This document shows positions 60,687-63,774 of a stretch of 64,000 bases of DNA, piece after piece. The first letter of the stretch is position 1. Each line of letters begins with the position of its first letter. Position numbers and translations under genes: made by a program. Under the pieces are notes generated by a model. It was given only the letters and a program-made list of their open reading frames with translations, made no database searches and was not told where the DNA came from. The DNA lies in the IMG/VR virus record IMGVR_UViG_3300038468_000190, positions 32,001 through 96,000 of that record. One strand, 5' to 3'. This DNA comes from a virus.

Positions 60687-60855
60687 CCGAAGGATTCTAA
60701 GTGAGGTCCCGGCCGGAATCGAGTGGGATCGGTTCGGGTCCCTGACGAGCTAGATCATCCATGGCGGTCGGCTGACGAAAACGCGCGAGCACCCGATTTC
60801 CTCTTCCTGACGAACGGCAATAATCACTGGAAGCACGCCTGCTGCTGGTTGCGGC

Positions 60856-61900
60856 CTGACGAACGCCATCGGTCACCGTAGGCCTTCCACGCGATGAATC
60901 AGATCCTTGCCGAGTGGTCGCACCCTCTGACGAACGCCATCGGTCACCATAGGCCTTCCGAGCGAGAGCGTTGTGCAGGCGGCCGCGGTGATGCGAGCTG
61001 ACGAACGCCATCCGTCACCCGGAGCCCTTGCGAGTAATATTGAGTGGCATGCCCGCGGGGACCTGAGTACTGACGAACGCCATCCGTCACCGTAGGCCTT
61101 CCGAGCTCGATGCGCCGGTTGCGCCTGTCGAGCCCGTGGGACTGACGAACGCCATCCGTCACCGTAGGCCTTATACGAGTCGCCCGAAAACATGGGCGCC
61201 GATGGGTGATCGAACTCTGACGAACGCCATCGGTCACCGTAGGCCTTCCGATGGCGAACGACAGGCGTCCGCACCCCGGACCGAACTGCTGACGAACGCC
61301 ATCGGTCACCGGAGCCCTTTGCGAGGTCGAGATCGAAATACGCTCGCCTCGTCCGAACTCTGACGAACGCCATCGGTCACCGGAGCCCTTGCGAGTCGCC
61401 ACCGCCGTCGAGAACGGCGAGCTCCGGAGCACCTGACGAACGCCATCCGTCACCGTAGGCCTTCCGAGAAGCAGTGCGGCGTCTGGTACAGCCAGCGCGC
61501 AACCCTGACGAACGCCATCCGTCACCGTAGGCCTTCCGAGCAGTAGCCGCGCCGGATGGATGGCGCTAACATTCGCACTGACGAACGCCATCCGTCACCG
61601 TAGGCCTTCCGAGTTTCCAACGGAGAGACTTGTACGGACAGAAAATGTCTGACGAACGCCATCCGTCACCGTAGGCCTTCCGAGTTCTCCGCCTGCGGGA
61701 CTTCCGGCACGCGATCCATCTGACGAACGCCATCCGTCACCGTAGGCCTTCCGAGCCGGAGGGCGGAGGGAATGATTCCGGAGAGACTCTCCTGACGAAC
61801 GCCATCCGTCACCGTAGGCCTTCCGAGCTTTCTTTTTCGCCTCTTTAGACCTCTGCGCGTCTTCCTGACGAACGCCATCCGTCACCGTAGGCCTTCCGAG
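60856..61900 (-). CRISPR. CRISPR array, 15 repeats and 14 spacers (34-37 nt)
   Basis: 36-nt repeat, minus-strand consensus CTCGGAAGGCCTACGGTGACGGATGGCGTTCGTCAG; plus-strand starts 60856, 60927, 60998, 61070, 61142, 61217, 61289, 61360, 61433, 61505, 61578, 61649, 61720, 61792, 61865; the seven right-most are identical and decay increases leftward, with remnants at 60742, 60772, 60807. Confidence 0.98.
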
Positions 61901-63774
61901 CCGTCCCCTCGGAGCCGAGTGACTCCGAGGCTTTGCGGTGCGGTTTGCGAGCGGTGCAGATCGTCGGCTCTGCACTCGGCCGTAACTCGTGGAAGTTGTT
62001 CGTCGTCGGCTCTCGCGTCGCTGGACCTCTCGAATGGGCTAGGGTGATCGATAGCATTCGGCCCCGAAGGGCCATCCGGTTGGTTCGCGGCGCCGGTAAT
62101 GGCTCCGTTCCCCGTTCCACGCTTGTGGCGTGTCCGGTTCCGAGGGCGATCCGGCGGCGTGGAGGCCGAAGCCTCCTCCGCCGTGGTTCCGGTTCCACTC
62201 GGCATTGTCCGAAGGGCGGAGCCCTCCGGGTTTCCCCCGGCGAGTCCCGCCGGAGTTACTGGTGCGCCCGAAGGCGACCTGTAGTCTCGAAGATTCTTGG
62301 CGCTGTTCACTTCGCGGTCCTCGGTGTGGCCGCACGCGGGGCAGTGGAAATCCGGGTAGCCCGGATCCGTGTCCCTGACGTTACCGCACACCGAGCAGCG
62401 CCGCGAGCTCGCGAATTCTTTCTCCGCGAACTCCGTCGTGCCGCCGGCCCATCCCTGCTTGTATTCGATGCGCCGGCGGATGTCGCCCATGCGGGCAAAC
62501 TGCACCCAGCCCGAGACGCGCTTTCGCGTCTGCTCGCCCGCCTCGGTTTTGCCGGCACGGGCCTTCATGTCCGCCACGAACGCGTCCCTCATGACGAGCG
62601 TCCCGGCGCCCGTGTCGACGACGGCGCGCGCGGCGCGGCCGGCAATGTAATCGCGGAGCTCGGTCGCGCGGCGCGAGTAGAGCGCCGCCTGAGCCTTGGC
62701 CCGGCGCCAGCCGTTCGACTGGATGCGGTCTTTGCGCGGAGTGGTCTTCGGGTAGGCCTTGTGCCGGCGCGCCATGCGCCGCTGCCAGAGCGCGATCTTC
62801 CGCTCGTAGGCCGCGAGGCGCTTCTCTTCTCGGATGCCGACGATGTCCACCTCGCCGCCGCTCGTCACGACGAGATGCCGGACGCCGACCTCGACGCCGA
62901 CGCGCTTGTCCGTCCGCGTCACGGGTCGCTCCCGGAGGGCTCTGCCGGCTCCACGGGGCCCAGGACTCGGCCGCGGCACAGTCCCCCTGAGCGAGACGTA
63001 CCAGCGCCCGCCCCATTCGCGAAGGCCGACGGCGGAGCACTGCCCGCCCCCTATGAACCGATGCGAACCCTCCTCGGTCGACGGAAGATAGCCGCGCTCC
63101 TTGAGCTTCACCCAGCCGACGCCTGGGATCTTGATCGCCCGCTCCGTCACGCGAAGCGCGCTCGGCTGGTCGGCGTGCCAGCGGCGGTTATCGCCGGACC
63201 GAAAGCGGGGCTCTCCGAGTTCGCAGCCGGGCGCTCCGCGGCGAGCGTCACACTCGGAGTGATCGCCGCGCGCGTGCTTCTTCAGCCGGCGCCAGAAGTG
63301 CTTGTAGGCATTGCCGACGTCGGCGGCCGCTTCCCGAACGGCGAAGGCACTCACCTCCGTCAGCCAGCGGAGCTCGGCCGAAGCGTGCTTAACCGCCGTG
63401 AGCTCCTTGTGCAGGGCATCGGCGTTCGGCATGGACTCGGGCTCCGCGTACGGGAGCCTCACCTGAAACTTCCAGAGCGTCCGTGGCGCCGCGCCGCGCT
63501 TGGCGCGCTTGGCCAGGCGCTCCGCGGGCTCTCCGAAGACGAGGGCGTGAAGGCCGAGCCCGAGCCACCACGCGGCGAGCCCGGTAGCGTGATCGAAGCC
63601 GGCAAGGGCCCGAAGGCCGCTAGCGACAGAGTAGATGCCGTACTCGGCGCGCCAGCGCTCGAGAGTCCAGTTGTACGCCACGCGTGCCGCTGCGATGTGC
63701 CGCGCGAGCAGGCGCCGTTGCTCGACAGTGGGGTCGAGCTCGGTGCGGTAGGCGCGATCGATCATGTCGGTCAT
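61882..63774 (-). CDS. CRISPR-associated TnpB-derived (type V-like) effector, predicted nuclease-dead
   Basis: RAYRTELDPTVEQRRLL...ARVAYNWTL N-terminus, PRFRS, IKIPGVGWVKL, WYVS, CSVC/CPAC zinc finger; RuvC motifs VGVEVG, LVMRD, DREVNSAKNL. Confidence 0.9.
   Translation of the reverse strand: MTDMIDRAYRTELDPTVEQRRLLARHIAAARVAYNWTLERWRAEYGIYSVASGLRALAGFDHATGLAAWWLGLGLHALVFGEPAERLAKRAKRGAAPRTLWKFQVRLPYAEPESMPNADALHKELTAVKHASAELRWLTEVSAFAVREAAADVGNAYKHFWRRLKKHARGDHSECDARRGAPGCELGEPRFRSGDNRRWHADQPSALRVTERAIKIPGVGWVKLKERGYLPSTEEGSHRFIGGGQCSAVGLREWGGRWYVSLRGTVPRPSPGPRGAGRALRERPVTRTDKRVGVEVGVRHLVVTSGGEVDIVGIREEKRLAAYERKIALWQRRMARRHKAYPKTTPRKDRIQSNGWRRAKAQAALYSRRATELRDYIAGRAARAVVDTGAGTLVMRDAFVADMKARAGKTEAGEQTRKRVSGWVQFARMGDIRRRIEYKQGWAGGTTEFAEKEFASSRRCSVCGNVRDTDPGYPDFHCPACGHTEDREVNSAKNLRDYRSPSGAPVTPAGLAGGNPEGSALRTMPSGTGTTAEEASASTPPDRPRNRTRHKRGTGNGAITGAANQPDGPSGPNAIDHPSPFERSSDARADDEQLPRVTAECRADDLHRSQTAPQSLGVTRLRGDGSEGLR
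61901..62280 (-). ncRNA. Candidate structured RNA (omegaRNA/tracr-like scaffold or leader) overlapping the effector ORF tail
   Basis: Seven hairpins, three closed by C(UUCG)G on the minus strand. Confidence 0.6.

Follow-up and report, generated by a model that had tools for sequence, protein, structure and literature searches.

A probably nuclease-impaired, type V-like CRISPR system built around a TnpB-like protein in a large virus genome

The DNA under study, which we call the window, is a 64,000-nucleotide stretch (positions 32,001-96,000) of IMG/VR record IMGVR_UViG_3300038468_000190, an uncultured bacterial virus. The full record is 140,124 bp long; its viral status rests on the IMG/VR listing and on CheckV, which puts its completeness at 100%. 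Close to the end of the window lies a gene for a 630-aa TnpB-like protein (hereafter the effector), followed on the same strand by a CRISPR array into which the gene itself runs. Judged from the DNA and the predicted protein, this cassette is probably a nuclease-impaired, virus-borne CRISPR system of type V-like organization. The features discussed below are collected, in window coordinates, in Table 1.

The effector gene and its CRISPR array

The effector open reading frame (ORF) starts with an ATG at 63774, at the same methionine as a homologue that is 80% identical (P0003), and terminates with a TGA at 61882-61884, so that its stop codon sits within repeat 1 of the array (61865-61900). Pfam identifies the domains HTH_OrfB_IS605 (PF12323) and Cas12f1-like TNB (PF07282), and the NCBIfam model guided_TnpB scores 139 bits (cut-off 100); the equivalog models IS607_TnpB and IS200_TnpB score far under their cut-offs. 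Coordinates and both domain databases thus agree with an initial annotation of the window, which had described a TnpB-like ORF of this length ending in the first of 15 repeats.

A structure model was computed with AlphaFold2 (AF2) using the family alignment as input. Residues 1-505 are modelled with confidence except for an insertion at residues 55-110, and the remaining 125-aa tail (residues 506-630) is predicted to be disordered, with a predicted local distance difference test (pLDDT) value of about 35. The best Foldseek matches of the model are ISFba1 TnpB (8iaz) and ISDra2 TnpB (8h1j), both at template modelling scores (TMt) of 0.78-0.79, compared to about 0.59 for Cas12f, 0.54-0.59 for LaTranC and 0.38-0.48 for Cas12m2. 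The fold is therefore that of TnpB. Furthermore, the DRxxN motif is retained, with D486 and N490 invariant. The low-confidence insertion (63445-63612) is an extra segment of about 60 aa that 400-aa TnpBs lack, their alignment with the effector being split into two stretches around it, and may represent an expansion of the REC lobe of the type tied to longer guides.

In PADLOC, the top match of the effector is Cas12u4 (V-U4), at 148 bits. We set this label aside as unspecific because the model also matches Deinococcus and ordinary Streptomyces TnpBs: in a single Streptomyces genome it scores eleven ordinary TnpBs between 62 and 399 bits, and all but one of these reach 180 bits or more.

The array repeats with a period of 71-75 nt, leaving spacers of 35-39 nt. 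Read in gene orientation, the repeat is CTCGGAAGGCCTACGGTGACGGATGGCGTTCGTCAG. The seven gene-proximal repeats are identical, and repeat variants build up towards the distal end, where the array runs out in decayed remnants.

Two spacers come close to matching genes of the virus that carries them, and both sites fall within genes with a coding-type GC content at third codon positions (GC3). More specifically, S06 differs from its self site at guide positions 2, 4 and 7, two of the differences being synonymous third-position changes and one a Ser/Thr exchange, while the sole mismatch of S11, at guide position 7, is synonymous (ACA/ACG, Thr). This pattern points to spacers matching the orthologous genes of a sibling virus, where such differences are expected. 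A comparable case occurs in a related virus (G001), in which one spacer is identical at 34 of 35 positions to a site in the genome of G001 itself, with the mismatch outside the seed; the same spacer is 88% identical to the virus studied here. Aside from its main self site, S11 has further partial matches at the genome ends and in several collagen-like repeats (window 38172-38294).

Searches for other targets were negative. The whole array has no match in the INPHARED phage collection, exact scans of IMG/VR with the cores of S03, S05, S06, S11 and S12 returned nothing, and a comparison of all spacers of the family with this genome and with all fetched loci added nothing new.

Table 1. Positions of the effector gene, its array and associated features within the 64,000-nt window
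Feature	Position	Strand	Remarks
Upstream intergenic region	63775..64000, continuing to ~64024 past the window	-	Presumed promoter location
Effector gene, 630 aa (P0002)	61882..63774	-	TnpB fold: WED/REC, RuvC, C4 zinc finger
RuvC-I Glu295 for Asp, GVEVG	62890..62892	-	In the clade: E 48, D 8, S 1 of 57
RuvC-II Arg396 for catalytic Glu, VMRD	62587..62589	-	Arg in 57/57 clade members
C4 zinc finger C460, C463, C478, C481	62332..62397	-	Invariant within the family
RuvC-III Glu488 for Asp, DREvN	62311..62313	-	In the clade: E 35, D 22 of 57
Structured RNA, putative omegaRNA-like scaffold or tracrRNA	61865..62298	-	Overlaps the ORF tail, ends with repeat 1
Anti-repeat (~34 nt), ~29 bp with the 36-nt repeat	62028..62063	-	163 nt upstream of repeat 1, same strand
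Conserved nucleotide motif CGCTCGCAAACCG	61941..61953	-	In all family tails and in low-GC sister L053/L054
CRISPR array, 15 full 36-nt repeats	60856..61900	-	Guide-adjacent hairpin TGACG...CGTCA
Spacer S06	61469..61504	-	33/36 match to own gene at 21449-21484
Spacer S11	61106..61141	-	35/36 match to own collagen-like gene at 38472-38507
Last spacer S15, then three decayed repeat remnants ending CGTCAG	60742..60855	-	Old array end
S06 self near-protospacer	21449..21484	-	Within gene 20972-21802 (+)
S11 self near-protospacer	38472..38507	+	Within gene 37609-38943 (+)

The RuvC site and the phylogeny of the family

Residues E295, R396 and E488 of the effector line up with the catalytic D-E-D residues in the TnpBs of ISDra2 and ISFba1, so the three altered codons named in the initial annotation are correct. 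The change at RuvC-III is a real one because the catalytic residue of the DxDxN motif is the second acidic residue, which in the effector reads DRE.

Relatives were collected in two ways. A word-indexed search gave 48 relatives at 33-80% identity, nearly all of them metagenomic proteins of about 500-630 aa, and a profile search of 1.84 billion representatives gave some 16-19 clusters above 470 bits, followed by ordinary 400-aa TnpBs below 300 bits. A tree of 104 sequences was then calculated over 404 alignment columns with FastTree (LG+gamma), with tails removed and midpoint rooting. The proteins with Arg at RuvC-II (57 members) form a monophyletic clade with support 1.0. Its sister, at a joint support of 0.93, is a clade that has D-E-D (P0083, P0084, P0090 and the protein of locus L053), the nearest ordinary TnpBs likewise retain D-E-D, and Glu occupies the RuvC-II position in 44 of the 47 outgroup TnpBs.

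Because Arg is present in every member of the clade, recent decay of the site, an outcome that had been named in advance as fatal to the initial reading, is ruled out. The altered RuvC site is an ancient trait conserved across the entire clade, in which the replacement of Glu by Arg at RuvC-II is the decisive change and both replacements of Asp by Glu are conservative. A group with D-R-E is nested within the Arg clade, and its Asp is therefore a reversion. We also searched the alignment for positions at which the family, but not the sequences around it, has an acidic residue; there are none, and hence no sign of a relocated Glu. Family-specific Arg positions number seven, Arg396 included.

One protein outside the clade, P0129 (448 aa, an ordinary-length TnpB from the profile search), has a triad that reads E-R-D. 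This is possibly a convergent Glu-to-Arg change, or else P0129 is a misplaced distant member.

The scaffold RNA, recurrence and surroundings of the cassette

The 3' part of the effector gene appears to double as a structured RNA. A stretch of 434 nt, which begins at the RuvC-III motif and includes repeat 1, folds with a minimum free energy of -215 kcal/mol (z -5.9), a value that none of 100 shuffled sequences equalled. GC3, at 0.80-0.94 over the body of the ORF, is down to 0.62-0.68 over the tail. Six loci share one series of tetraloop hairpins in their tails, with double-sided changes at 39 of 70 consensus pairs. No Rfam family matches the tail or the array.

Within this region lies a sequence complementary to the repeat, located by scanning for duplex energy after plain BLAST had missed it. 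The best partner of the repeat is found at -158 to -172 nt from repeat 1 both in this locus and in three relatives (L002, L044 and L043). The duplex is the gene-wide energy minimum here (-40.7 kcal/mol), in L002 (-47.4 kcal/mol) and in L044 (-45.3 kcal/mol), and is near the minimum in L043; in these four loci, just 0-2 of 200 shuffled repeats equal or beat the cognate one. Across loci, pairing between repeat and anti-repeat is kept at many positions through changes on both sides. From this covariation, we take the anti-repeat to be of the trans-activating CRISPR RNA (tracrRNA) type and the system to have a tracrRNA derived from an omegaRNA; when the anti-repeat is read in cis with repeat 1, the predicted RNA is an omegaRNA whose last 36 nt have been multiplied into an array. 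The scaffold and its anti-repeat are absent from the initial annotation and are an addition of the present analysis.

The tail is also kept open as a reading frame. Frame 0 has no internal stop in any locus, and in L053, a locus of 40% GC, it contains 0 stops compared to 10 and 15 in the other two frames. At the same time, the tail motif CTCGCAAA, located 50-70 nt ahead of the stop codon, is translated in more than one frame, as RSQT or as ARKP. The open frame together with a nucleotide motif that is shared across frames places the tail under both RNA and open-frame constraint. Antisense to the effector, a 633-aa ORF (61933-63834, + strand) is a shadow ORF of the type that arises in high-GC DNA, and its likeness to the shadow frames of relatives simply reflects the real gene.

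The combination of gene and array recurs in seven other loci (L001, L002, L043, L044, L045, L047 and L049) with protein identities of 36-46%, which bears out the earlier claim that a virus-borne TnpB-like effector is tied to its own CRISPR array. L002/L049 and L045/L047 are pairs of near-identical viruses, so that the seven loci hold five distinct arrays; two other large virus genomes are included, one of them (L001) being a 136-kb virus with terminal repeats. The array lies directly 3' of the gene in all seven loci and the stop codon always falls within the first repeat. In family loci with enough downstream DNA, L052 excepted, the array begins 12-20 nt before the stop codon. The repeats vary in sequence between loci but all retain the guide-adjacent hairpin, the stem of which covaries (TGACG/CGTCA, TGAC/GTCA, GTGA/TCAC). 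Among the loci compared we found no conserved flanking or partner gene, including the helix-turn-helix (HTH) protein reported for V-U24. Since flanking genes are not conserved, the unit consists of the gene plus the array.

Arrays in the Arg clade range from 3 to 15 repeats, and their contents turn over. L045 and L047 have flanks that are 95-99% identical; their gene-proximal spacers are entirely different and the distal decayed units are common to both. Similarly, L049 carries two internal spacers that are missing from L002. These differences fit a polarised gain of spacers at the gene end combined with deletions, with adaptation possibly provided in trans.

Two loci depart from the simple arrangement. 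In L047, the same spacer is present twice in one array (7896-7931 and 8185-8220, units 1 and 5), which indicates a probable duplication by recombination within the array. L044 has two arrays with the same repeat (1-428 and 4041-4215): one follows the gene directly, and the second, longer one is situated about 1.8 kb upstream of the gene at the contig edge.

Two further relatives differ from the cassette more deeply. L052:6001-7464 encodes a family member of 490 aa, 52% identical and with E-R-E, that stops 16 codons past RuvC-III; it is a solo effector in a 48-kb contig, without tail RNA and without a downstream array, and the database protein record matching it lists a 115-kb contig. The sister lineage of the Arg clade (L053:3645-5560 and L054:1960-2170) is of low GC content (about 40%) and encodes a 604-aa protein with an intact D-E-D; it has the same tail motif as the Arg clade and a mini-array of 2-3 repeats of 36 nt. 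Because this sister has both tail RNA and mini-array, the CRISPR association and the long scaffold predate the Glu-to-Arg change. By these traits, the L053/L054 lineage resembles what the cassette would have been in a nuclease-competent ancestor.

Within the viral genome the cassette stands on its own. No Cas1, Cas2, Cas4, Y1 TnpA, resolvase or TniQ was found across the 140,124-bp record, which extends to the sequence past position 64000 the initial statement that the window lacks cas1, cas2, cas4 and tnpA; TnsB and TnsC were not searched for separately from TniQ. The TnpB-like gene is single copy in this genome of 140 kb. When ten large ORFs were compared with PHROGs, matches were limited to an RNase H and a glycosyltransferase. 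The effector gene had been described as abutting an upstream ORF, with no room for the left end of an insertion sequence (IS). Both statements were wrong: the upstream neighbour ends at about 64025, so that some 250 nt of intergenic DNA separate it from the effector ATG. A scan of the region upstream of the effector showed no sigma-70-like promoter.

Immediately downstream of the array, the gene at 59712-60686 (-) has a paralogue about 2 kb away at 57042-57917 (+). Both match one and the same gene of L052, and in the other loci they are unlinked to the cassette. Finally, the ends of the genome (G000 1-693 and 137,776-140,124, outside the window) share direct repeats: sequences that are 95-96% identical occur both within the first 220-440 nt and within the last 226 nt. 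The 140,124-bp record is labelled by IMG/VR as linear without end repeats, despite these direct repeats.

Comparison with known systems and interpretation

In its fold and domain set the effector has the traits of TnpB and of OMEGA systems; the D-E-D triad, the transposon context and the single-guide omegaRNA are not present. Like ISDra2 and ISFba1 TnpB (8h1j, 8iaz), it has the layout of HTH, RuvC and zinc finger and a guide scaffold overlapping the 3' end of the ORF. It differs from them in having E-R-E instead of D-E-D, the insertion of about 60 aa, the 125-aa tail and an array instead of a single guide, and, compared to these elements, it has no TnpA and no IS ends and is present as a single copy. 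What aligns the system with type V is a TnpB-derived RuvC effector standing beside an array, a link conserved among its homologues and in the sister loci L053/L054.

Among described type V effectors, Cas12m (V-M) is likewise a compact TnpB-derived protein with a non-canonical RuvC triad; it silences through DNA binding without cleavage, and its loci often lack adaptation genes. Cas12m2 binds DNA without cutting it and has an HDD triad (PMC10442227), and the triad of PmCas12m is NDD (bioRxiv 10.64898/2026.03.26.714355). Cas12m triads are HDD, NDD or HEK, whereas that of the effector is E-R-E; moreover, Cas12m is guided by CRISPR RNA (crRNA) alone and contains a REC2 coiled-coil insertion, whereas the array studied here has a covarying anti-repeat about 165 nt upstream of it. 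MvCas12m of a myxophage differs again in that it keeps D-E-D, with different spacing (bioRxiv 10.64898/2026.09.14.751636). We rejected membership in Cas12m because phmmer aligned the effector with the Cas12m chain UnCas12m4a at E 0.52 and in the zinc finger only, and because the structural score with Cas12m2 is below those with TnpB and Cas12f.

TranC (LaTranC, PDB 9jfo/9jfq; Jin et al. 2025) resembles the present system in another way. Its TnpB-like effector is reported to work with an omegaRNA that has become functionally divided, one part being tracr-like and the other forming CRISPR repeats, an architecture intermediate between OMEGA and type V; TranC proteins are reported to be active nucleases and are not known to be virus-specific. 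Between the effector and LaTranC, the one lineage compared, sequence similarity is limited to the zinc finger (E 0.03), and the RuvC site differs.

A phage-borne counterpart is Cas12r of Thermus Lalka phages, a TnpB-like protein with an array and no adaptation genes that has been proposed to act in conflicts between mobile elements (bioRxiv 10.64898/2026.04.20.719267). Cas12r has an active RuvC, as the D238A substitution abolishes interference, works with crRNA alone and no tracrRNA, has 29-nt repeats and comes from thermophiles (bioRxiv 10.64898/2026.04.20.719267). Compared by description only, the family studied here differs in Arg at RuvC-II, in the anti-repeat and scaffold within the ORF tail and in its 36-nt repeats.

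TldRs are also TnpB derivatives with a disrupted RuvC, act as RNA-guided repressors and are in some cases prophage-borne (bioRxiv 10.1101/2023.11.30.569447). They have one fixed omegaRNA guide, a C-terminal truncation that removes RuvC-III and the zinc finger, and a linkage to fliC or oppF (bioRxiv 10.1101/2023.11.30.569447). We rejected membership in this group on account of the 15-spacer array, the retained zinc finger and DRxxN motif and the absence of conserved neighbours; Cas12k, the effector of V-K CRISPR-associated transposons (CAST), was rejected because the genome has no TniQ and the cassette no conserved neighbours. Accordingly, the effector does not belong by sequence or fold to Cas12m, Cas12k, Cas12f or TldR.

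Taken together, these observations lead us to lean, with restrained confidence, towards a virus-borne type V-like CRISPR system with a tracrRNA- or omegaRNA-type scaffold that is directed against related viruses and in which the effector most likely binds DNA and does not cut it. In this proposal, the self-contained cassette combines on one strand the TnpB-fold effector, a scaffold of about 400 nt derived from an omegaRNA (overlapping the last ~125 codons and including the anti-repeat) and the 15-spacer array, the repeats of which would be copies of the guide-adjacent end of the scaffold. The transcript would most likely give rise to an RNA resembling a tracrRNA, which would pair either with every repeat or, in cis, with repeat 1, and this pairing would load guides of 35-37 nt onto the effector. 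Since Arg replaces the RuvC-II Glu across the clade and no other acidic residue makes up for it, the canonical two-metal site is incomplete. The complex would then most likely bind target DNA without cutting both strands, and binding would block transcription or replication, as with Cas12m. We hypothesize that the targets are most likely close-kin viruses that co-infect the same host, so that the system would serve to exclude rivals; the carrier's own orthologous genes would escape through seed-side mismatches. New spacers would enter at the gene-proximal end through machinery that the virus does not encode.

Several findings weigh against this proposal. For 13 of the 15 spacers there is no true target among the INPHARED phages or in the exact IMG/VR scans, and the 5' flanks of the three near-protospacers (CCCG, CGGG and GGGC) show no consensus for a protospacer-adjacent motif (PAM). 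The anti-repeat is weak in L001 and L045, in which the cognate repeat is matched by 14-20 of 200 shuffled ones. Every locus, the relative of 40% GC included, keeps the frame of the tail open, and thus a role for the tail as protein is possible. At the active site, the D-to-E substitutions are conservative and two carboxylates are still present. The term nuclease-dead used in the initial annotation needs qualifying: the RuvC-II change is invariant, but the other two changes are conservative, one subclade has Asp at RuvC-I, and deadness is something we infer from the site.

The last point leads to the strongest alternative, in which the effector is still a nuclease or nickase, working through a non-canonical E-R-E/D site or a one-metal mechanism, and the cassette is an ordinary viral interference CRISPR like Cas12r, CasPhi or CasLambda. 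The altered residues are strictly conserved and not drifting, the site still has two acidic ligands along with the invariant D486 and N490, and both the zinc finger and the TNB domain are preserved. In addition, a 2023 census of TnpB-derived systems argues that conserved RuvC-II rearrangements in other TnpB branches are usually still active, and names a rearranged branch, RIIr-4, as 'specifically represented in viruses', with altered sites also in V-U24, V-U43 and V-U44 (PMC10691335). The known active rearrangements, however, have a substitute Glu elsewhere, and the family has no specific acidic residue that could take this part; an Arg reverses the charge where a metal ligand is expected, and the D-E-D sister clade shows the canonical site to be ancestral. 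We therefore regard retained nuclease activity as unlikely, while giving it serious weight.

Rather less probable, in our assessment, is that the guides regulate late genes of the virus itself, for a collagen-like fibre and a secreted protein, through the partly matched S06 and S11, timing or tuning their expression as TldRs repress flagellin. Two of the 15 spacers are within 1-3 mismatches of own genes, the self-matching spacer of G001 has its mismatch outside the seed, and self-targeting by a non-cutting effector would be harmless. Yet the mismatches of S06 and S11 occupy guide positions 2, 4 and 7, those least tolerated by type V and TnpB effectors, and resemble the divergence of orthologues with its synonymous third-position changes; the other 13 spacers have no self-match, and near-identical viruses with wholly different spacer sets are a better fit to defence than to fixed regulation. 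The remaining explanation, a decaying or immobilised IS605/IS607-type TnpB element with a tandemly duplicated 3' end and a functionless array and tail, is suggested by the score of the protein with the generic TnpB model and by the solo copy in L052, but is highly improbable: the cassette is conserved at protein identities as low as 36%, its ORFs are intact, its RNA covaries and its spacers turn over, and the gene is single-copy in a genome without TnpA or resolvase.

Beyond DNA binding directed at related viruses, the phylogeny allows a broader and more tentative proposal, which we put forward as possible without claiming that it is probable. A virus-restricted clade would have arisen from a CRISPR-associated, nuclease-competent ancestor and fixed Arg throughout, giving a tracrRNA-dependent DNA binder of about 500 aa with an array that turns over and is used against sibling viruses; this would be an independent origin of non-cutting type V, with the tracrRNA embedded in, and translated as, the tail of the protein. 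Independent domestication, as suggested in the initial annotation, is plausible on this evidence. What qualifies it is that Cas12 arose from TnpB on about 50 occasions and that 40 V-U* branches (V-U6 to V-U45) are uncharacterised, according to the census (PMC10691335), so that the family may fall among these TnpB-derived CRISPR branches or within RIIr-4. Full-text literature searches showed us no description of this combination, in which a virus-restricted Arg clade has a tracr scaffold overlapping a tail that is translated, and its D-E-D sister has mini-arrays.

Array turnover in the absence of viral Cas1 or Cas2 raises the question of the route by which spacers are acquired. The core of about 500 aa with its invariant site change is a candidate compact scaffold for CRISPR interference (CRISPRi). 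The locus also captures what appears to be an evolutionary intermediate, in which an omegaRNA scaffold overlaps the ORF and its guide-adjacent end has been multiplied into an array, and with a D-E-D sister carrying a mini-array of 2-3 repeats beside the Arg clade, both the origin of arrays from omegaRNA and the later fate of RuvC become testable. If binding without cutting is true, the family would join Cas12k, Cas12m, TldR and dCas12f-sigma as one more case in which TnpB has naturally become a programmable DNA binder, and it would be the first of them found as a standing weapon of viruses.

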